Source of the DNA: a virus
Taxonomy: Duplodnaviria > Caudoviricetes
Reading direction: 5' to 3' (one strand)
Length of the DNA stretch: 52,239 nucleotides
Virus record (IMG/VR): IMGVR_UViG_3300020045_012262
Span: 1 to 52,239 of that record
The position numbers were made by a program, and so were the translations under genes. The first letter of the stretch is position 1. Each line of letters starts with the position of its first letter. The notes under the pieces were generated by a model. It saw only the letters and a list, made by a program, of their open reading frames with translations. It ran no database searches and was not told the origin of the DNA. This document shows positions 1 through 52,239 of the stretch, piece by piece.

Positions 1-121
1 GTATTGAGAAATTGTGTACATCCCGATTTTGGGAAACATATTTTTGATTGTCTTGAAAATAATTACAAACCAATCGAGAGTCAAATGTTCTTATTTGCAG
101 ATTCGTAGTATAACCGCTAAC
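1..121 (+). repeat. Exact copy of 2333-2453 (3' end of the methyltransferase cassette, ending at TAAC)
   Basis: Identical to 2333-2453. Diverges immediately after ...gtataaccgctaac (ggtcta here, tagcgg there). Confidence 0.97.
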
Positions 122-210
122 GGTCTAGCTTGTCGCTGTATGCCAAGATAGAACGTGAATAGAAAGAAAAAAGTCGTAGCATATAGCTACAAGCGTATGT
201 TATGGCTCGT
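118..210. repeat. attC-like hairpin site preceding cassette C
   Basis: TAAC(118-121) ggtcta GCTTGTcGCTgTATGC ... GCATAtAGCtACAAGC gtat GTTA(199-202); 77-nt body. Confidence 0.8.
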
Positions 211-635
211 TCTTTTTTTTACACTAACAAAAAAAATAATAATATGAAAAATTTACAATTATCATTAATTAAAGTATGGTTTGAAAAGACCAAATTAAAA
301 ATTAAACCCGAAGATTACAGGGCTATAACTCCTTATTTCTGTAATAAATTTTTACTTTTTAATGGAGAAAATTTATCAAAAGAACAATGGAGAGTGTTTT
401 TAATTACAAGCGGTGTTAATTATTTGATTTTATGTATAGGCAAAGAAATCACTTTTAAAAATTTTACCCTAAACATAATGACTTTAGGTTATCCAAAATC
501 AGGAGATACCGAACGCATTTTAAAATATCAACACGCAGGAATCGAAATAAGAACTGGCAACCCTGAATGGGGAGCAGAACCTGATAAACTTTATTTCGTC
601 ATTTTACACGGTTGCTCGGTAGAATGAGCCATAAC
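122..635 (+). mobile_element. Putative gene cassette C (ASCH-like gene)
   Basis: Gene flanked by gttatggctcgttct (199-213) and agaatgagccataac (621-635), which are reverse complements except at position 11. Confidence 0.75.
202..627 (+). CDS. ASCH/PUA-like domain protein (start may be ATG 244)
   Basis: L-x-L-x3-WF...K-x-E-x-R N-terminus, GYP, and GNPEWGAEP..YFVI C-terminus typical of phage ASCH-like proteins. Confidence 0.65.
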   Translation: MARSFFYTNKKNNNMKNLQLSLIKVWFEKTKLKIKPEDYRAITPYFCNKFLLFNGENLSKEQWRVFLITSGVNYLILCIGKEITFKNFTLNIMTLGYPKSGDTERILKYQHAGIEIRTGNPEWGAEPDKLYFVILHGCSVE

Positions 636-764
636 GGTTCGCTTGTATGGTTAGTGCGGAAAAATAAACCGAATCATTCCATACAATACCGACCAATCCA
701 AATACAAACTGAATTATAAATTAAACACAATACCGCATTAATTATACAAGCTGTTAGCGGATGT
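632..764. repeat. attC-like hairpin site preceding cassette D
   Basis: TAAC(632-635) ggttc GCTTGTATggTTAgTGCGG ... CCGCAtTAAttATACAAGC t GTTA(753-756); 117-nt body. Confidence 0.85.
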
Positions 765-814
765 GGCTTCCACTAAACTTCTGGGCGGAGTGATAAAACC
801 CAAACACAACTATT

Positions 815-1108
815 ATGAATGATAATTTAAGCAGAGCCTACGAAGTGAATCACATCGAGGACATCAAGAAAAACCAAAAAGAGAATAATTCGTTATTAAA
901 AATTTTAGTGACAAATTATGATGAAAAACAAGGCGAAATTCTTATGGTAAAAATTCAAAATGACCCTAATCCTGAATTTCCTATTTACTATTGTTTATCT
1001 GAAAGTTTGACCGCTTGTGAAAATGCTATTAAAGCAAAACCAAGTAGAGAACTAGCCTTGGTAAAAACCAAACTCCAAGAAGCCTTATTTTGGCTAAATG
1101 AAGCCTAA
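815..1108 (+). CDS. Small protein with Tad1/Acb2-like C-terminal helical hairpin (candidate anti-defence nucleotide sponge)
   Basis: C-terminus SRELALVKTKLQEALFWLN resembles the RE-x(5)-TKL-[EQ]-EA-x-x-W motif recalled for the Tad1/Acb2 family. Confidence 0.55.
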   Translation: MNDNLSRAYEVNHIEDIKKNQKENNSLLKILVTNYDEKQGEILMVKIQNDPNPEFPIYYCLSESLTACENAIKAKPSRELALVKTKLQEALFWLNEA

Positions 1109-1121
1109 ATCTGTTTTTATT

Positions 1122-1147
1122 GGCGGTAGTTCTTGATTACTACCGCC
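1122..1147. terminator. GC-rich hairpin after the cassette D gene
   Basis: ggcggtagt...actaccgcc inverted repeat; no clear U-tract on +. Confidence 0.4.
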
Positions 1148-1155
1148 ATATCCGC

Positions 1156-1291
1156 TAACGTCCGAGTGCTTGCAGAAGTTAGGGAAAAGTAAGTACTATT
1201 TTTTAATTAAAAAACAATAATAACAAATACAAACCAAGCCACCAAGTTAAGCCTAAAACCCTAATTTTTGCAAACACTTGTTATAGGCTGT
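1156..1291. repeat. attC-like hairpin site preceding cassette E
   Basis: TAAC(1156-1159) gtccg AGTGcTTGCAgAAgTTAGGG ... CCCTAAtTTtTGCAAaCACT t GTTA(1280-1283); 120-nt body. Confidence 0.85.
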
Positions 1292-1640
1292 TTTAACTAA
1301 ATTTAATTATGAAACTATTAGAAAATTACGAAAAAGCATTACAAGAAATTTACGACCACGTTGGATTTGTGGAAGATTATGTTATTTATCCAATAAACGA
1401 TAATACTAAATATTTTTGGGATTGTGATGGAGAAACAATATTTTTTGCAGATACAGAAAAAGAGTTTGAAGATGAAGATGGTAATTACTATGAAAGTGAA
1501 GTTTATACTCAAAGATTTTATCAAAAATGGATTTATGAAGGTAAAGACTTTACAATGATTTTTGAAGATACACATACTGACGGAATGAAATATTTTGCCG
1601 TGTTTGATAACACTAAACGTCTTAAAAAATAGCCTATAAC
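1160..1640 (+). mobile_element. Putative gene cassette E (hypothetical acidic protein)
   Basis: Flanked by gttataggctgtttt (1280-1294) and aaaatagcctataac (1626-1640). Confidence 0.75.
1309..1632 (+). CDS. Hypothetical acidic protein (cassette cargo)
   Basis: 107-aa ORF exactly filling the cassette. Confidence 0.8.
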   Translation: MKLLENYEKALQEIYDHVGFVEDYVIYPINDNTKYFWDCDGETIFFADTEKEFEDEDGNYYESEVYTQRFYQKWIYEGKDFTMIFEDTHTDGMKYFAVFDNTKRLKK

Positions 1641-1768
1641 GCTTGCCACTTGGTGCGGTTGGGGCTAAATAAGCCAAATAATTAAATTCAAAAACAATCT
1701 TTATGATACAAAATAATAATCAAATTAAACCTGATGCCCAATCGCTCCAAATGGATGTTAGCGGTTGT
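1637..1768. repeat. attC-like hairpin site preceding the methyltransferase cassette (1637-1742 is duplicated at 52134-52239)
   Basis: TAAC(1637-1640) gcttg CCAcTTGGtGCGgTTGGG ... CCCAAtCGCtCCAAaTGG at GTTA(1757-1760); 116-nt body. Confidence 0.85.
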
Positions 1769-2453
1769 ACGGTTGTTGTTAAGAAAAAAGTTCTTAATCT
1801 ATACGCTGGACTTGGTGGAAATCGCAAAAAATGGAATGATGATTTATACGATGTTACAGCCGTTGAATTTGATGAAAAAATAGCGAACGTTTATAGACTA
1901 AACTTTCCGAATGATAAACTAATAATTGGCGATGCTCACAAATATTTAAAAGAGAATCATCAGGATTACGATATTATTTGGAGTTCGCCACCCTGTCAAA
2001 AACATAGCAAAATGATGAAAGCCACAAGGCACAAAGTAGCTGATTATATTGATATTTCTCTTTATCAGCAAATCATCTTTTTACAGCATTTTTTCAAAGG
2101 TAAATTTATTGTTGAAAATGTAAAACCTTACTACGAACCTTTGATAAAACCGACTAAAACATTAGGCCGTCATTTATTATGGTCAAATTTTGAAATATCA
2201 GATTTTGAAATGCCAAACATAAAAGGATTTATAACTGCTGGAACTGTTGCCGAAACCGAAAAATTAAAAGAATGGCTAGGAATAAAATACGAAGGAAATA
2301 TTTACTACAAAGGAAATCATTGTCCTGGTCAAGTATTGAGAAATTGTGTACATCCCGATTTTGGGAAACATATTTTTGATTGTCTTGAAAATAATTACAA
2401 ACCAATCGAGAGTCAAATGTTCTTATTTGCAGATTCGTAGTATAACCGCTAAC
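1641..2453 (+). mobile_element. Putative gene cassette M (DNA methyltransferase)
   Basis: Flanked by gttagcggttgtac (1757-1770) and gtataaccgctaac (2440-2453). Both of its ends recur at the window termini with different neighbours. Confidence 0.85.
1703..2440 (+). CDS. DNA (cytosine-5) methyltransferase, short phage type
   Basis: Motif I NLYAGLGG, catalytic motif IV SPPCQ, motif VI VENV. Confidence 0.9.
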   Translation: MIQNNNQIKPDAQSLQMDVSGCTVVVKKKVLNLYAGLGGNRKKWNDDLYDVTAVEFDEKIANVYRLNFPNDKLIIGDAHKYLKENHQDYDIIWSSPPCQKHSKMMKATRHKVADYIDISLYQQIIFLQHFFKGKFIVENVKPYYEPLIKPTKTLGRHLLWSNFEISDFEMPNIKGFITAGTVAETEKLKEWLGIKYEGNIYYKGNHCPGQVLRNCVHPDFGKHIFDCLENNYKPIESQMFLFADS

Positions 2454-2503
2454 TAGCGGATTGGATTGACTAATGTGGTAATAACTTAATAAAACAAATA
2501 CTT

Positions 2504-2764
2504 ATGATTACCACATTAGTTTATAATTTCGGATTTGAGTACAAAGGAGCAAGATATGTTTGGAAGTCTAAAAAATTATTCAGATTGCCATACACAAAAG
2601 GACTACGAACCTATTCATTCAAAGAAATACCGTTTTACTGTTTCAAATCAACAATAGTTTATAACATTCAAAGAACCAAACTTACTATAAATAGATTGGA
2701 AACTATGACTATAAAAGTTGATTGGACACATGATATTTTTATAAATGATGATTGCCCATTTTAA
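2504..2764 (+). CDS. Hypothetical protein
   Basis: 86-aa ORF; its ATG lies inside the 2469-2520 hairpin. Confidence 0.65.
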   Translation: MITTLVYNFGFEYKGARYVWKSKKLFRLPYTKGLRTYSFKEIPFYCFKSTIVYNIQRTKLTINRLETMTIKVDWTHDIFINDDCPF

Positions 2765-3234
2765 CACCTTATAAAATGAAAATACAAGATATAAAACTGA
2801 AAGAGATTTACTTCCAAGAAGTAATGAATGATATAAGAAATTTTGTAATTGTTGAATCATACGTTCAATATTCAGTTGGAAATTTAATTATAATAACTGA
2901 GGTTTGTCAAACAATAAAGTCAAAGCCTAGAAAATGCATTAAAAAAATAAGTTATGTTAGTGTAGGCGATGGACATGGATTATCAAAAAATTATTGTCTT
3001 TTAATTTTAAGACCAACTACAGCAAAATTAGAATATGATTATACATGGAAATCAGAAATTCCAGAATATGATCAAATAAGAATAATAGAGTATTGGAAAA
3101 ATGAAAAAAATAATGGAATTAATAATCTAATGGATAGATTCCCTTATAAAAAATCAGCAATAAATAATTTAATTGATAATTATTTAAAACATAAAATAAA
3201 TGATAACAGAAGCAAAAATTCAGGAACGTATTGA
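2752..3234 (+). CDS. Hypothetical protein with a DUF3850/ASCH-like N-terminus (start probably ATG 2776)
   Basis: IKLKEIYFQEV...F.IV....YSVGNLIIITE resembles the DUF3850 pattern LK....YF..V..G.K.FE.R..DR.F.VGD.L.L.E. Confidence 0.45.
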   Translation: MPILTPYKMKIQDIKLKEIYFQEVMNDIRNFVIVESYVQYSVGNLIIITEVCQTIKSKPRKCIKKISYVSVGDGHGLSKNYCLLILRPTTAKLEYDYTWKSEIPEYDQIRIIEYWKNEKNNGINNLMDRFPYKKSAINNLIDNYLKHKINDNRSKNSGTY

Positions 3235-3355
3235 TTTTTATATCAAGGAAATTGAAGTGTTTGGATCCAATAAAAAGCATGCGCAAAAGAAAAAAGTTTC
3301 TCAAAGCATTTTAAGTTTTTGGAATAATCAATTAAGTAAATATAAAAAATTACAA

Positions 3356-3386
3356 AAAAACTCGTTGCAATAGTAGCGAGTTTTTT
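3356..3386 (+). terminator. Rho-independent terminator
   Basis: aaaaactcgttgc...gtagcgagtttttt hairpin followed by a T run. Confidence 0.7.
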
Positions 3387-4394: not shown

Positions 4395-4809
4395 CAAATC
4401 AAAAATTTATAAACAGGCAATAAAACTGATTGAAGAAAAGGATTGTTTAGATATTCGTGAACTTATCGCGTTACTTCCTTGTCAAACAACTTGTTTTTAT
4501 GCCTTTTTCCCCGCTACATCGAAAGAATCGGAAACGTTTAAAGAAATGATTAATACTAACAAAGTAAAAGCCTGTGGAGGGCTTAAACGTAAATGGATTA
4601 AATCAGAAAATGCAACGCTTCAAATTGCTGCTTATAAACTTATGGGTGATGAAGATGAAGTTCATAGATTAAGCGGAACCAAGCAAGAAACTACGCTTAA
4701 AGGCGATAAAGATCATCCGATTGAATTCAATGATGAGGTTTCAAGAAACAAGCTTATTGCCGAGCTTACAAAAGAATTGGCAGGTGAATTACAGCAAGAA
4801 ACAAAATAA
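4384..4809 (+). CDS. Probable terminase small subunit
   Basis: Size, HTH-like N-terminus (TTCFY), C-terminal LKGDKDHPI motif, and position upstream of TerL. Confidence 0.55.
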   Translation: MAFSKSKIYKQAIKLIEEKDCLDIRELIALLPCQTTCFYAFFPATSKESETFKEMINTNKVKACGGLKRKWIKSENATLQIAAYKLMGDEDEVHRLSGTKQETTLKGDKDHPIEFNDEVSRNKLIAELTKELAGELQQETK

Positions 4810-5037
4810 AATATACAAACTGATTTTAAACTTTGGATTCCGATAAATCGGAGTGAGAAACTATCAGGCGGTTAATAAGTCTTTAAATCATGTCTCTTTA
4901 CTAGGATTGTTAGATCATTTGCCAATTTCGACTAGTGCAAATAGTAGGCTAGTAAAAATGTGATCGTTTAGCGTTATGATAATTAATTTTTTCAATATTT
5001 ATAAATTATCATTATAAAAAACACATGTGAAGAAGTA

Positions 5038-9625: not shown

Positions 9626-9679
9626 ATTATTTAGAAACATTTTAAATTGATGGTGAAACAAAAATAAATGTAATTTGTA

Positions 9680-13554: not shown

Positions 13555-13950
13555 ATGCCAACAGCAGATTTAAACAACACTCCTGTTCAAATTGACACTA
13601 CTTTCGATTCTATCATTATCAAGAAAAACTTGATTGATATTCCAGGAGGTAAGACTTTAGATGTTACAGGCGTTACAGATGAAGTCCTAAAAGCAGGACG
13701 AGTTATAATTGAGGTTACGGCTACGGGGGTTTTAAAACCTTTGAAAATTGCTTCGGGTGCTTATGAATCACTTCCTGCAAATCATACTTATAAAGGAATT
13801 TTGATTGCCACTATTCTTTTGAAAAGACCTTTTGCGGCTGTTTTATTAGCGGGTGACGTTAATAAACAAGCAGTAATAGAATATGGTTTACCTGCAATTC
13901 CTGCCGGTGCAATTACCGCATTACCTCAAATTTTATTCACTAAGGACTAA
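13555..13950 (+). CDS. Head decoration protein (probable)
   Basis: 131-aa beta-rich ORF between scaffold and major capsid; LKAG and LP.I.F motifs. Confidence 0.65.
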   Translation: MPTADLNNTPVQIDTTFDSIIIKKNLIDIPGGKTLDVTGVTDEVLKAGRVIIEVTATGVLKPLKIASGAYESLPANHTYKGILIATILLKRPFAAVLLAGDVNKQAVIEYGLPAIPAGAITALPQILFTKD

Positions 13951-13977
13951 TTAATCCTTTAAAAAACTAAAAGAAAA

Positions 13978-15261
13978 ATGGAAAAATCATTATTTCCTGC
14001 TTGGGTTGATAAGTTCTTTAAGTCCTTTGCCCTTAAAGCTTCAGAAACGGTTAATGGTACTAAAACACCTTTAACATATATGCATAAAACCATGCTTAGA
14101 AAAACATTCTCAACTACGTTGAAATGGGGTTCTGTCTCAAGCAATGGTGCTATTGTAAGAGCCGATATTGTCGCTTTGGATTCTAGTCTTCCTTTAAAAA
14201 GAAGGGATTCAGTTCAAACTGCCAACGGTGATATCCCTAAATTGGGTATGAAAATGTATTTGAACGAAACAACAATGAGTGAACTTCGTAATTTACTTGC
14301 CATTGGCGGTAAAGAAGCTGAAGTTCTACGTAATTTGTTTTCTGACACAAAGAAATGCGTTTCCGGTGTTTATGAATCACTTGAATATATGTTTTTAGAA
14401 GCATTATCAACAGGTGTAACATTAATTACTGGTGATGATTCAACAGGAGTTGGTGTAAGGATTGATTTCGGTCATCCGGATGCTAATAAATTTGGTGTAG
14501 GTCTACCATGGACAAACACAAGCGCAACACCTATTGATGATATCAATCATGTTATTGCTGCTGCTAAATTAAAAGGGGATAAAATTTCATATTTATTCAT
14601 GGATATGAATACTTGGAATTTATTTAAAGCAAATACACAAGTTAAAAATGAATTTGCCTTTTCAATGGGATTTGTTGGAACAACAATTCCAAATGTTCCA
14701 AATGTAGATAGAGCAAATGAATTTTTACAATCTTCTTATGGGTTTTCAATTACAATTATTGATAGACAGATGTTAGTTGAGCAAAACGGTAAACGTGCTG
14801 TTACAACTCCATGGGCTGCAAACATTGTGTGTTTCTTGACAGATTTAAATGTTGGAACATTAACCTATGGAGCATTGGCAGAAGAATCATTTCCAGTAAA
14901 ACAAGTTGATTATCAAAAAGTAGATGATTTAATTTTGCTTTCTAAATATGGTACCAATGATCCTGTTCGTGAATTTACATCTTCACAAGCATTGGCTTTG
15001 CCGGTTCTTGATAATGTCGATTCTATTTACTTAATGGATATTACGGATTCAGTTCAAGATGTACAAACAGAAGGTGACGCTAATTTCTTGTATAAAACAG
15101 TAAGTTATACTAAAACATCAGTAATTGCAGGTTTAAATGCTGCAAGTCCTGGACAACCGTTAACAACCGCTTCAACTGACGCATCAATTATGAAAGCTAT
15201 AAACAAACTTTCAGATGAACAAGTATTGATTTTTGAAGCTCAATTAGTAGCGTCAGTATAA
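13978..15261 (+). CDS. Major capsid protein (lambda gpE-like fold)
   Basis: ADIVALDS.LP, IPKLG, E.M..EALSTG, IDFG, A.PIDDI and ALPV motifs; synteny. Confidence 0.85.
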   Translation: MEKSLFPAWVDKFFKSFALKASETVNGTKTPLTYMHKTMLRKTFSTTLKWGSVSSNGAIVRADIVALDSSLPLKRRDSVQTANGDIPKLGMKMYLNETTMSELRNLLAIGGKEAEVLRNLFSDTKKCVSGVYESLEYMFLEALSTGVTLITGDDSTGVGVRIDFGHPDANKFGVGLPWTNTSATPIDDINHVIAAAKLKGDKISYLFMDMNTWNLFKANTQVKNEFAFSMGFVGTTIPNVPNVDRANEFLQSSYGFSITIIDRQMLVEQNGKRAVTTPWAANIVCFLTDLNVGTLTYGALAEESFPVKQVDYQKVDDLILLSKYGTNDPVREFTSSQALALPVLDNVDSIYLMDITDSVQDVQTEGDANFLYKTVSYTKTSVIAGLNAASPGQPLTTASTDASIMKAINKLSDEQVLIFEAQLVASV

Positions 15262-40882: not shown

Positions 40883-41299
40883 ATGAAAATCATTGAAAAT
40901 GTTACAATTTACAAATGTGATTTTTGCAAAAAGGAATTGAAGCGTAAACATGCAATGGTTAATCACGAAGAAAAATGCAACTGCAATCCATTAAATTTTA
41001 GGGCATGTACTAATGGATGTGTATTTTTAGAAAGAGAAGTTATTGACGTTGATTTTGAAACTGGATATGATTATGAAAATGGAGAAACTCAATATTCAAC
41101 AAAACAAGTTAGTGCTTTTAAATGCACAAAATTTGACAAAATAATGTATCCGTTTTCAATTGAAAAATCAAGTGCTTTAGAAAAACATCCTCAAACTTTT
41201 GAATATCAGGAACCAATGCCAAAAACATGTGAATCATTTAATAATACTGAATCTTGGGATGAATATTTTGAACGGATGCAAAATAAATCAGATTTATAA
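40883..41299 (+). CDS. Cys-rich hypothetical protein
   Basis: YKCDFCKK...HEEKC zinc-finger-like motif. Confidence 0.65.
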   Translation: MKIIENVTIYKCDFCKKELKRKHAMVNHEEKCNCNPLNFRACTNGCVFLEREVIDVDFETGYDYENGETQYSTKQVSAFKCTKFDKIMYPFSIEKSSALEKHPQTFEYQEPMPKTCESFNNTESWDEYFERMQNKSDL

Positions 41300-49984: not shown

Positions 49985-50530
49985 ATGGATTATAACCAAT
50001 TTTTAGAATCAAAACGAAAAACATTTATTGAAAGCGGATTTGAAATAGATGAATCAGAATTAAATCCAATGATGAAAGATTTTCAATTATTTGGAGTAAA
50101 AACAGCATTGTTTAAAGGACGTTTTGCATTTTTCTTTGATTGTGGACTAGGTAAAACTTTTTCTCAATTAGATTGGGCGAAACAAGTAAGTTTAAAAACT
50201 AAAAAACCAGTTATTATTTTAGCCCCATTGGCAATTGTAGAACAAACAATATCAGAGGGTTTAAAATTTGGATATGGACGCGATGGGAATGATGAAAAAC
50301 ATATTTGCCCGCTTCAGTTAGATACTATTGAAAGAATTTTGCATTTATATTCTAATGAGGGAGAAACAGTTTTTAGTCCTTTTGGTGGCATTGGATCAGA
50401 AGGTTGTTGTGCAATTAAGATGGATCGTAAATCAATTTCAATTGAACTGAAAGAAAGTTATTTTAAAATCAACGAAAGTAATCACAAAGCATTTGTTGAA
50501 GAAAAAAATTCAACTCTAACACTTTTCTAA
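49985..50530 (+). pseudogene. Internally deleted helicase / N4-N6 DNA methyltransferase fusion
   Basis: N-half carries SF2 motifs I and Ia (DCGLGKT, ILAPL). C-half carries MTase SAM-binding end motifs (KHICPLQLD.IER, FSPFGGIGSEG). The middles of both are absent. Confidence 0.75.
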
Positions 50531-51252
50531 TGATAAAAGAAAAACCTTGTAAAGGATTAGATGCCGCATTTGGATTTCCAGGATGCGGCAAAATGGTAAA
50601 AGTAGAAAATAGAAAGTTTGGACTTGGAAAAATGTGTTGCTTTAATTTATGGCTTATGGACACCGAGGCCGGCCAATTATATTTAAACAAAGCAATGAGA
50701 ATTTCAAAAAAGGCTCATGAAAAAGAAAATCCAGCTATAAAGCCATTTGATAAAAAACAGCATAAAAAAGATAAGGAGGCTTTAAAAGATTGGTCCAAAG
50801 AACTTCAGGTAAAAGTTAATTTTATTGTTAGACTGATTGATAAAGGATTGAATTGTTTGGCCCGTGATTATCCTGCAAAAAAAATTGATGCAGGTCATGT
50901 GTTTGCCCGTGGAGGGAATCAAACAATTCGTTTCAATCTTCATAATATTCACCGACAAAGCGCACAATCAAATCACTTCCAAAATGATGATGGATTACTT
51001 CGTGAAGGACTTGTAAAAGAATATGGTCAGTATTATATGGATTTTATATCAGAATTAAGGCGTACACCGCAATTACACATCACAAATACAGAATACCATC
51101 AAATTTATAAATTAGCGTCTAAAATCGCACTCAGATTAAAAAAAGCCGATAATGAATATAGTTTAGAAGATCGTATTCGTTTAAGAAATTCCATTAACAA
51201 GGAACTTGGTATTTATGAAAATGTATTTTGTCAATTTGGACCAGTTAATTAA
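50530..51252 (+). CDS. NinG/Rap-like HNH nuclease
   Basis: VRL.D....C, DAGH...RG....RF...NIH.Q motifs. Confidence 0.8.
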   Translation: MIKEKPCKGLDAAFGFPGCGKMVKVENRKFGLGKMCCFNLWLMDTEAGQLYLNKAMRISKKAHEKENPAIKPFDKKQHKKDKEALKDWSKELQVKVNFIVRLIDKGLNCLARDYPAKKIDAGHVFARGGNQTIRFNLHNIHRQSAQSNHFQNDDGLLREGLVKEYGQYYMDFISELRRTPQLHITNTEYHQIYKLASKIALRLKKADNEYSLEDRIRLRNSINKELGIYENVFCQFGPVN

Positions 51253-51293
51253 CTATTTAGAATTACTATAAATTAAAAGCACTTTGTAAAACA

Positions 51294-51316
51294 TAAACGT
51301 ATGTTTTGTACATTTG
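51294..51316 (+). promoter_or_regulatory. Promoter directly upstream of the cassette array (Pc-like)
   Basis: TAAACGTATGTTTTG-TACATTTG (box 51309-51316), with TTTG about 26 nt upstream. Confidence 0.7.
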
Positions 51317-51364
51317 AATATTAAAAATCAATAATCACAATGCCGAAAATCGCTCATATCACTT

Positions 51365-51642
51365 GTTATCAGGAGTACGGCAATTAAAAACTAAATATGT
51401 TATGAAAATTAAAGAAGGAATGCCACAACCAATAGATTGCCCAAAATGTAAATGTAAAAGAGGATACAGAATTACACAACTTGAACAATTGCATAGTGAT
51501 AATTTATTTGATGAAAATGGAAATTACACAGGCGAATCAAATTCAGAGCATAGAAAAGTAATTAGAAGATTAAAAACAATTAGTTGTGCTGATTGTTGGA
51601 CTAAATTGTCTTTTGAAATTGAATCGTAGTATTCCTGATAAC
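51365..51642 (+). mobile_element. Putative gene cassette A (first in the array; only the right arm of its site is present)
   Basis: Flanked by gttatcaggagtac (51365-51378) and gtattcctgataac (51629-51642). Confidence 0.7.
51402..51629 (+). CDS. Small zinc-ribbon protein (cassette cargo)
   Basis: CPKC...CADC; ATG 51402 preferred over the TTG at 51363. Confidence 0.7.
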   Translation: MKIKEGMPQPIDCPKCKCKRGYRITQLEQLHSDNLFDENGNYTGESNSEHRKVIRRLKTISCADCWTKLSFEIES

Positions 51643-51772
51643 GTATCGTGGCTTTGTCTTGTTGCCGAAAATACAAGACCAATTTTAAATTTATCACTAT
51701 GAAAACTGATACAAGATCAACTTCAAATTTAGCCGAATGTGGCAATAAGTCAAAACCACTGTTACAAGATGT
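51639..51772. repeat. attC-like hairpin site preceding cassette B
   Basis: TAAC(51639-51642) gtatc GTGGcTTTGtCTTgTTGCC ... GGCAAtAAGtCAAAaCCAC t GTTA(51761-51764); 118-nt body. Confidence 0.85.
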
Positions 51773-52137
51773 ATTTATTTCTACTTATGGATTTAAAAAA
51801 GATTGGTCATACAGAGGCGAAGAGTTTTACTTTATTCCGTTAACTTGGAAATTAGGAGTTTCAAATATTGAAGCTTTGAAAATTAGGATTTCAAAATGGA
51901 AACCAAAATTTGACAGAGAAAATCAGGCTATATTTTATTTTGACGTAGAAACAAAAGAAGAAGCTAAATTGGTTTTAGATAAATTCAAAGCGTTTAATTT
52001 CAAAAAATTAGAAGATAAATTTGATTCTATTTTTAATGATGAAAATGTAAGGTTAAAAAATTCAGGAGAAACTAAAGAGTGGTTATTAAACGTAATTCCC
52101 TTATTAAGAACTGAATTTTCTGAATATATCTTGTAAC
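51643..52137 (+). mobile_element. Putative gene cassette B
   Basis: Flanked by gttacaagatgtatt (51761-51775) and aatatatcttgtaac (52123-52137). Confidence 0.75.
51699..52136 (+). CDS. Hypothetical protein (cassette cargo)
   Basis: ATG 51699 lies in the hairpin loop; the stop codon is the TAA of the terminal TAAC. Confidence 0.7.
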   Translation: MKTDTRSTSNLAECGNKSKPLLQDVFISTYGFKKDWSYRGEEFYFIPLTWKLGVSNIEALKIRISKWKPKFDRENQAIFYFDVETKEEAKLVLDKFKAFNFKKLEDKFDSIFNDENVRLKNSGETKEWLLNVIPLLRTEFSEYIL

Positions 52138-52239
52138 GCTTGCCACTTGGTGCGGTTGGGGCTAAATAAGCCAAATAATTAAATTCAAAAACAATCTTTA
52201 TGATACAAAATAATAATCAAATTAAACCTGATGCCCAAT
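52134..52239 (+). repeat. Exact copy of 1637-1742 (site and 5' end of the methyltransferase cassette)
   Basis: Identity begins exactly at TAAC and runs to the window end. Confidence 0.97.

Follow-up and report, generated by a model that had tools for sequence, protein, structure and literature searches.

The DNA analysed here, referred to below as the window, is the entire virus record IMGVR_UViG_3300020045_012262, which comprises 52,239 bases, is classed as linear and has a completeness estimate of 77%. It has a terminase large subunit with 52% identity to the one of Cellulophaga phage Nekkels_1, and the matches of its NinG/Rap-like protein are restricted to Cellulophaga and Tenacibaculum phages, so that its sequence places the window among phages of the flavobacterial type. 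An array of cassettes, each with one open reading frame (ORF), lies at the two ends of the record downstream of a promoter-like repeat at 51285–51326, with all ORFs on the + strand (Table 1). The cassettes begin with GTTA-N6-G-T and end with A-T-N6'-TAAC, and hairpin-forming spacers separate them. We consider it probable that this end grammar marks the sites of an integron-like cassette system of the phage. The observations behind this reading are the grammar itself, its conservation, the covariation of N6 with N6', the boundaries of the mobile units and the adjacency of a recombinase gene.

The grammar, first noticed in an initial annotation of the sequence, is present in all six complete cassettes at the positions and with the N6 words given there. 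Positions 1–10 of the two ends of a cassette are perfectly complementary in all six, while N6 fits the neighbouring cassette across the spacer poorly, with a mean of 2.56 matches out of six over 27 spacers of the window and its relatives (two of six from A to B). At position 11, G at the start faces T at the end in every cassette, and pairing then resumes for 3 bp (A and M) or 4 bp (B, C, D and E) before it ends, so the annotation was accurate on each of these points. A T directly precedes GTTA in 6/6 starts, and a G directly follows TAAC in six of seven ends, the exception being the last end, that of M2. The end sequence of cassette M is repeated at 110–121. The half pattern GTTA-N6-GT is not enriched in the window (29 occurrences against 20.75 expected, a count of 29 being reached by seven of 100 shuffles). 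Perfect 10-bp pairs spaced 100–1600 nt apart number seven, and six of these carry the full grammar; 200 windows simulated with a first-order Markov model contained 1.22 such pairs on average and five at most, and the full grammar appeared in none of them.

The two ends of the record indicate how the array continues. Positions 1–121 are 100% identical to 2333–2453, with the identity stopping at the C of TAAC, and positions 52123–52239 are 97% identical to 1626–1742, with the mismatches confined to the first 15 bases. On the simplest reading of these repeats, the two ends of the record probably join up through a further copy of cassette M. If they do, the array order is A, B, M1 (mostly missing), C, D, E and M2, giving seven cassettes. 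The assembly seems to have broken inside an array repeat, and the close relative L004/G001 likewise breaks within its array; the arrays thus account for the breaks of such phage contigs at this point in assemblies.

The NinG-like protein led to 14 viral loci, several of which have the same kind of array; that of L004 comprises ten cassettes and starts directly after the same promoter-like repeat as in the window. For the census, a perfect 10-bp pair within 100–1600 nt was the sole requirement. The window and the viral loci together yielded 49 unique pairs, with G at the start and T at the end at position 11 in 34 and the inverted form in four. Pairing in these 34 resumes at position 12 in 34/34 and continues at positions 13, 14, 15 and 16 in 32, 33, 25 and 5 of them, respectively; T precedes GTTA in all 34 and G follows TAAC in 30. 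The remaining 11 pairs consist mostly of A+T-rich words and probably arose by chance, or else they represent a variant in which position 11 has a one-base bulge. A second set, of 80 metagenome loci, was obtained by a scan with an alignment of five recombinase proteins, and gave 30 perfect pairs with 23 different N6 words, of which 25 have G facing T and none has the inverted form. In 24 of these 25 cassettes, the recombinase strand carries the longest ORF. The check proposed earlier on a larger set, for covariation of N6 and N6' and for the position-11 mismatch, therefore found both kept across many N6 words, in 34 plus 4 of 49 and in 25 of 30 pairs.

Several variants were seen among these loci. 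The inverted-grammar cassettes (L035 1937–4916 and L008 135–1065) are oriented opposite to forward cassettes on the same contigs, and have A at the start side and G at the end side. In two cassettes of L004 (10881–11283 and 13569–14021), one additional T at position 11 of the start arm takes the place of the wobble (TACCAC versus ACCGCC), so that an irregularity at position 11 is retained in a different form; in another variant, T faces T at position 10 and G still faces T at position 11. Among the nearest cultured phages, the grammar is absent from the equivalent regions of Cellulophaga phage Nekkels_1, which has NinG in the same place, and in L011 an M-like methylase gene lies in a tight operon without spacers. 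A search of the array DNA against phage records returned ORF-level matches only, at 66–73% identity.

The spacers of the window have 77–120 nt between TAAC and GTTA, and both of their ends are imperfect inverted repeats. Their anatomy was compared, on the + strand, over a set of 27 formed by the window and 22 spacers from relatives, in which the length from TAAC to GTTA inclusive is 71–130 nt. At the base, TAAC pairs with GTTA and is followed by a G·T closing pair in 27/27. A one-sided bulge then follows in the 5' arm only, with 4 nt in 16 spacers, 3 nt in seven, 2 nt in three and 5 nt in one. Beyond the bulge are a covarying stem of about 4 bp, a C×A mismatch (stem index 5) in 13 of the 27, and TT paired with AA. 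A second G·T wobble occurs in this inner arm at stem index 14 in 21 spacers, and five or six further pairs lead to an A+T-rich loop. No extrahelical bases were seen in the 27 spacers.

Complementarity of N6 and N6' would be meaningless in duplex DNA, and therefore the cassette ends are expected to pair, across the spacer, in a folded strand of an excised circle. The junctions of the circle form fold on the + strand with −20.7 to −25.2 kcal/mol, compared with −11.2 to −15.2 kcal/mol for the array form, which is 6–10 kcal/mol less, and the − strand of the circle form folds 1.2–5.1 kcal/mol worse than the + strand in all five units. The folded site of a circularized cassette proposed in the initial annotation thus stands with respect to its structure, in view of the covariation, the conserved G:T and the better folding of the circle form, but the unit assumed for it, GTTA...TAAC, does not.

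The wobble at position 11 stays constant among freely varying N6 words. Counting from the inner G of either arm, the G of the wobble comes eleventh; alignment on the TT step puts the inner wobble one base closer. Two wobbles at a like distance fit two recombinase subunits that would each read the far end of an arm, and both wobbles make the − strand a poorer hairpin. In our estimate there is an even chance that the position-11 wobble serves as a mark read by the recombinase, as a strand-choice device or as both, and it is reasonable to read the inner-arm wobble together with it as putative recognition or strand marks. The suggestion that the array form, with N6 unpaired, disfavours excision fits the fold energies and is likewise a reasonable, if putative, bias. 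G:T mispairs of attC sites are reported to be enriched on the recombined strand (1.24 versus 0.39 per site; Nivina et al. 2016, PMC5027507), and a putative strand-mark role of the wobble would agree with this excess by analogy.

Three cases locate the boundaries of the mobile unit. M1 and M2 have the same upstream spacer (102/102 nt) and diverge right after TAAC. In the metagenome locus L053, a 325-nt unit occurs twice (1372–1696 and 4626–4950) with 98.5% identity and TAAC boundaries on both copies, one of which lies directly against the site adjoining the recombinase gene. Lastly, positions 1154–1641 of the window (TAAC, spacer S2, cassette E and TAAC) occur with four differences on a 3588-nt contig from an unrelated run, flanked on each side by 255 nt of unlike sequence. 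Two further joints with short sides (20–22 nt), each on a single contig, were excluded. The start codon of the methylase ORF (ATG 1751) is inside the upstream spacer, 6 nt before GTTA, and the methylase of a relative supports a protein start near this ATG. Because the three independent TAAC-bounded duplications or transfers carry the upstream hairpin, the mobile unit includes the upstream spacer: as these junctions define it, the unit is the C of the preceding TAAC, the upstream spacer and GTTA...TAA of the cassette's own TAAC. It is not, on the same junctions, a gene plus its downstream hairpin, nor the segment GTTA...TAAC that the initial annotation had taken for the unit. Spacer-like pieces of the window (119–203, 632–686, 699–760, 1164–1292 and 1690–1760) recur, 90–99% alike, on short contigs from metagenomes that include wastewater and freshwater ones; these contigs end at GTTA or TAAC, and many cassettes seem to share spacer families. 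The shares of the sequencing runs that hold window sequence are all 0.13 or lower and form the basis for no conclusion about habitat.

The recombinase that would act on these sites is encoded by relatives of the phage. In G001, the closest relative (NinG 88% identical), the array runs off one contig end, and at the other end TAAC is followed by 52 nt and then by the gene of a 266-residue tyrosine recombinase on the same strand as the cassette ORFs. The genes after it are homologous to window ORFs 2752–3234 (the C-terminal part) and 3200–3373, and from this gene order the window has lost the primary site and the recombinase gene. All 11 viral loci whose sequence extends upstream have N6'-TAAC about 50 nt ahead of the recombinase ATG (52 nt in L026 and L024), and a conserved stretch comes after it. 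Most metagenome loci down to about 39% identity share this arrangement, and in them TAAC is followed by another conserved word. A strict test required the final cassette to show the grammar and to end shortly before the match; of the 26 metagenome loci at or above 39% identity, 15 passed, with distances of 42–104 nt, and of the 25 below 39% none did. An attI-like primary site beside the recombinase gene is thus present in relatives only.

The recombinase matches PF00589 with 105.3 bits against a cut-off of 27.1. Residues R132, K157, H216, R219 and Y251 are invariant in the five aligned proteins, and H242 is replaced by Q in two of them. It has the two-domain build of Xer enzymes, and its model scores are below the equivalog cut-offs, namely 164.5 versus 220 for XerA_Arch, 145.4 versus 335 for XerC and 134.8 versus 330 for XerD. 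The integron integrase model TIGR02249 gives 124.3 bits in two stretches, with a cut-off of 265. The protein aligns in one piece with the XerA-type structures PDB 4a8e and 5hxy, and in two pieces with VchIntIA (2a3v), where residues 169–210 face 172–261 and about 48 residues of IntI are left without a counterpart. By these scores and alignments, it is a Xer-like recombinase, closest to XerA, which lacks the IntI-specific insertion. In G003 (L024 2327–3574), a second tyrosine recombinase of 415 residues directly follows the small one and may be a phage integrase for lysogeny. A protein of 58% identity on a Flavobacterium contig of 451,895 bp (P0086) is the sole pointer to hosts that carry the system and serves as a hint. 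An IS200/IS605-type Y1 transposase was tried as a candidate enzyme and rejected, as the record has no PF01797 match.

Together, these features suggest how the cassettes might move. Attached to attC-like imperfect hairpins between genes (TAAC-G...T-GTTA), each unit would consist of the C of TAAC, the spacer hairpin, GTTA-N6-G-T, a short leader, one ORF and A-T-N6'-TAA. Excision as a circle would join TAA to C, placing N6' and N6 on the two sides of the spacer hairpin, so that they would form the split outer arm of one attC-like hairpin that is restored only in the circle. On the + (sense) strand, the resulting long hairpin would have an outer arm of 14–15 bp, made up of TAAC/GTTA, the N6 duplex, the position-11 G·T and three or four pairs; further in would come the closing G·T, the one-sided bulge of 2–5 nt, an inner arm of about 20 bp with the C×A mismatch and the second G·T, and the A+T-rich loop. 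The 266-residue recombinase would bind both arms, cleave the + strand within TAAC, by analogy at the A/C bond, and exchange it with the primary TAAC site beside its own gene. We infer the folded single strand as the substrate, the exchanged strand and, by analogy, the exact cleaved bond. Cassettes that are new or re-inserted would be placed beside the recombinase gene, in line with the L053 duplicate and the terminal M2. Insertion would separate the halves of the outer arm, and therefore each N6 would fit its own far end and not the neighbour. The array of the window, without primary site and recombinase, would be rearranged only in trans or by homologous exchange.

A number of observations weigh against this reading. 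The window record has no match to tyrosine recombinases (PF00589) anywhere and no primary site, so the cognate recombinase is found in relatives only, and activity of the window's own array is putative. The strict terminal-cassette test was failed by 11 of the 26 loci, and the two censuses overlap in part (L037/L032, L039/L033 and L065/G005 are the same contigs). Unusual folding of single spacers was rejected, as z-scores of the array form are −0.1 to −2.9 on either strand and mostly within noise. M1 is deduced from both record ends and never seen whole, and the crossover is located only to TAAC ± 1–2 nt. Spacer S2 recurs with 93% identity between two other cassettes in L024, and pieces like S0, S1 and S3 occur on short contigs from other metagenomes that break at GTTA as well as at TAAC. 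Cassette A with its upstream half-spacer (51324–51642) and L004 11872–12151 share this half-spacer, GTTA-TCAGGA, a leader of about 45 nt up to the start codon and roughly the final 22 nt with the stop codon, with unrelated ORFs between, which looks like an ORF swapped within a conserved frame. In addition, one L004 cassette ORF (13605–14006) is 92% identical to the non-cassette window gene 40883–41299, which sits in an ordinary tight operon; the similarity is limited to the ORF, and the pair may capture a gene on its way into a cassette or out of one. The recurring S2, the contigs that break at GTTA, the swap in A and the 92% identical ORF therefore point to exchange beyond TAAC as well, at or near GTTA and at ORF borders, perhaps by short-homology recombination.

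Among other explanations of the array, it might be an ordinary cluster of attC sites lacking integron integrases (CALIN) that is served by the integron integrase of the host, in which case the crossover would fall at G|TTA and every gene would own the hairpin downstream of it, as in classical integrons. GTTA and TAAC match the conserved GTT and AAC triplets, the site lengths are in the attC range, the window has no recombinase of its own, and IntI1 is reported to recombine attC sites of phages at G|TT (Qi et al. 2023, PMC9892861). However, the three unit boundaries are at TAAC and include the upstream rather than the downstream hairpin, the start codon of the methylase belongs to the upstream spacer, and the arrays of relatives end at a recombinase gene of their own, with TAAC as the junction; furthermore, an IntegronFinder survey records almost no complete integrons in Bacteroidetes (PMC9024848). 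This leaves only a small chance for an ordinary CALIN. It is very unlikely that the structures act purely in + strand messenger RNA, with the spacers as processing or terminator hairpins, the end pairing as stems that close cistrons and the wobbles as G·U pairs. Such a role would explain why all wobbles favour the transcribed strand and why stop codons lie inside the end repeat, but it leaves unexplained the exact TAAC-bounded duplications and transfers, the fixed position of the recombinase gene after the last TAAC and the inverted cassettes with inverted grammar in L035 and L008. An RNA role in addition to the site function is possible.

In T4-type phages, shuffling by short homology has been proposed for promoter and stem-loop modules, and recombination of this kind between conserved intergenic modules would need no site function for the end repeats. 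The shared leader and ends of cassette A and its L004 counterpart around unrelated ORFs are in favour of it, as are the L004 cassette ORF with its non-cassette match and the NinG/Rap-like junction endonuclease gene that flanks the array. Yet short homology offers no reason for an N6 that is complementary to its own far end and differs between cassettes, nor for the fixed position-11 wobble, and it leaves the adjacency of the recombinase unexplained; as the whole explanation it is therefore quite improbable, while such exchange probably acts alongside site-specific exchange. Chance similarity or an assembly artefact has a negligible probability. The single-end pattern is indeed not enriched in the window and the record does break inside a repeat, but the simulations never produced the full grammar, the same grammar recurs in dozens of independent contigs, and both censuses of relatives together with the simulations refute this explanation.

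The features of the array and its flanks are listed in Table 1. The 42-nt repeat in front of the array is likely the source of transcription through it; this putative promoter is assigned from its position and from a TAnnTTTG-like word, which we take to be a promoter motif. Five such promoter-like repeats occur in the record (at 9669, 35023, 38681, 49718 and 51285), with 69–86% identity to the reference copy. Cassette A is probably fixed in place because its left half-spacer with the TAAC is missing. Stop codons lie within the end repeats of C (TGA in A-T-GAGCCA, 622–635), E (TAG in N6', 1626–1640) and B (TAA of TAAC, 52126–52137), and thus the ORFs extend to the extreme end of the cassettes. 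Just past the last TAAC is a perfect 14-bp hairpin (about 2471–2522) with the ATG of ORF 2504–2764 in its loop, which may be a decayed spacer or a terminator.

Table 1. Coordinates of the cassette array and its flanking features in the window, in the order of the closed record.
Feature	Coordinates	Strand	Remarks
NinG/Rap-like junction endonuclease gene	50530–51252	+	PF05766, 66 bits; flanks the array; anchor for finding relatives
Promoter-like 42-nt repeat	51285–51326	+	Immediately 5' of the array; member of repeat family D1 (five copies)
Right half-spacer before cassette A	51324–51364	+	Aligns to the right arm of the full spacer 5' of the A-like cassette in L004
Cassette A, N6 TCAGGA	51365–51642	+	ORF 51402–51629, 75 aa; weak PHROG match only
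Spacer hairpin SA	51643–51760	+	Part of unit B
Cassette B, N6 CAAGAT	51761–52137	+	ORF 51768–52136; stop codon is the TAA of the terminal TAAC
Spacer S3'	52138–52239	+	102/102 nt identical to S3 (1641–1742), family D3; leads into M1, cut by the record end
Last 121 nt of M1	1–121	+	Equals 2333–2453, 100% (repeat family D2)
Spacer hairpin S0	122–198	+	Unit C
Cassette C, N6 TGGCTC	199–635	+	ORF 244–627, phrog_625 (no assigned function)
Spacer hairpin S1	636–752	+	Unit D
Cassette D, N6 GCGGAT	753–1159	+	ORF 815–1108, Acb2/Tad1 hairpin-domain match
Spacer hairpin S2	1160–1279	+	Unit E; accompanies E in another metagenome
Cassette E, N6 TAGGCT	1280–1640	+	ORF 1309–1632, phrog_24232
Spacer hairpin S3	1641–1756	+	Unit M; contains the ATG of the methylase ORF (1751)
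Cassette M2, N6 GCGGTT	1757–2453	+	ORF 1751–2440, C5 cytosine DNA methylase (PF00145); final cassette of the array
Position where relatives have the attI-like site and recombinase gene	2454–3060	+	Unrelated sequence here; compared with G001

The ORF of cassette D matches the Acb2/Tad1 hairpin domain of Pfam (PF24729) with 29.8 bits against a cut-off of 27, and a cassette of L004 (14946–15230) matches a PHROG of MazG-like nucleoside triphosphate pyrophosphohydrolases. The cargo, with the short C5 methylase of M, the Acb2/Tad1-like protein of D and the MazG-like protein in L004, hints at a putative counter-defence function. Chromosomal integrons are reported to store anti-phage defence genes, and a counter-defence cargo of the phage would mirror these genes.

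We compared the system of the phage with integrons. As in integrons, the single-ORF cassettes of the relatives form an array that has a tyrosine recombinase gene and, adjoining it, a primary site at one end, each cassette has an imperfect hairpin with AAC/GTT triplets, variable sequence and a variable loop, the unit boundary falls at the AAC triplet to within 1–2 nt, and the outer-arm half at the cassette start is complementary to the cassette's own site and not to that of its neighbour. The core and inverse core sites of integron cassettes reportedly show such own-site complementarity in work of Hall, Stokes and colleagues from the 1990s, and the split-arm relation is long known from integron cassettes. 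The re-inserted duplicate of L053 adjoins the primary site, again as in integrons. When read on the − strand, the arrangement is that of an integron, with a recombinase gene pointing away, a primary site, cassettes ending in hairpins and the boundary G|TTA. G:T mispairs that favour one strand are a further likeness (PMC5027507), and attC sites are described as having conserved triplets, variable arms and a variable loop (PMC5027507 and PMC3053210). The attC sites have 57–141 bp with R and L boxes, and the phage sites 71–130 nt with two arms, AAC/GTT triplets and a variable loop.

The differences from integrons concern the enzyme, the orientation and the site. Unlike integron integrases, the recombinase of the relatives has no IntI-specific insertion (the I2 helix region), and its gene is downstream of the cassette ORFs in the same direction, so that all cassette ORFs face the recombinase end. 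For classical integrons, ORFs that face the integrase are said never to have been observed (PMC5027507). On the coding strand, the hairpin precedes the ORF within the unit, and the upstream hairpin travels with the ORF. The unpaired centre is a one-sided bulge of 2–5 nt compared with 5–6 nt on each arm in attC, fixed wobbles and the C×A mismatch take the place of extrahelical bases, and the outer arm has 14–15 bp versus 7. Finally, the system resides in a phage.

Virulent phages, among them a Polaribacter phage, are already known to have attC clusters that lack an integrase, and IntI1 recombined five of six tested sites (Qi et al. 2023, PMC9892861). The CALIN of Polaribacter phage P12002L resembles the array of the window: in both, hairpin sites lie between small genes, some of them for DNA methylases, of a flavobacterial phage that has no integron integrase. 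The methylase genes of P12002L have the ends GTTAGGCAC.../...GTGCCTAAC, and at positions 10–11 T faces T there whereas G faces T here. No cognate phage recombinase is reported for it in the excerpted text (Qi et al. 2023), in contrast to the relatives of the window, which encode one. A CALIN is defined by two or more sites that the attC model recognizes, with no IntI within 4 kb; with six spacer hairpins and no recombinase, the window itself is a candidate CALIN. In the literature searched, a pairing of such a recombinase with such an array is not described, although the supplements of Qi et al. (2023) might list related phages; the reversed ORF orientation, the one-sided bulge, the outer arm of 14–15 bp and the two fixed wobbles were also not found there.

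Xer enzymes provide the nearest comparison for the recombinase, as XerA, XerC and XerD are the best sequence matches and have the same two-domain build, but the scores are below the equivalog cut-offs and the gene adjoins a cassette array instead of acting in the setting of a chromosome dimer-resolution site. The attP of the CTX phage is a single-strand hairpin that is used by XerCD, a Xer enzyme without the IntI helix, with exchange of one strand. Unlike in the phage system described here, the whole CTX phage integrates at dif, and there is neither a cassette array nor a cassette-specific arm. The I2 helix of integron integrases is described as the innovation that enabled recombination of single-stranded hairpins (PMC7790495 and PMC4792948). 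A cassette system with hairpin sites that lacks this helix would, if confirmed, be a natural test of which features are needed, with a simpler enzyme, and would mean that shufflable gene stores are kept by phages too, beyond bacteria. We tentatively propose, at somewhat less than an even chance, that a lineage of small Xer-like recombinases without the IntI helix evolved hairpin cassette capture independently of integrons as a phage store of accessory, probably counter-defence, genes, with two fixed G·T wobbles, one about ten base pairs out on each arm, replacing the extrahelical bases of attC as marks of strand and arm and with cassettes read toward the recombinase from a phage promoter at the far end. 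In summary, as far as sequence can tell, the system operates in the manner of an integron but departs from the definition in two respects, the enzyme, which is not of the IntI family, and the orientation of the cassettes.

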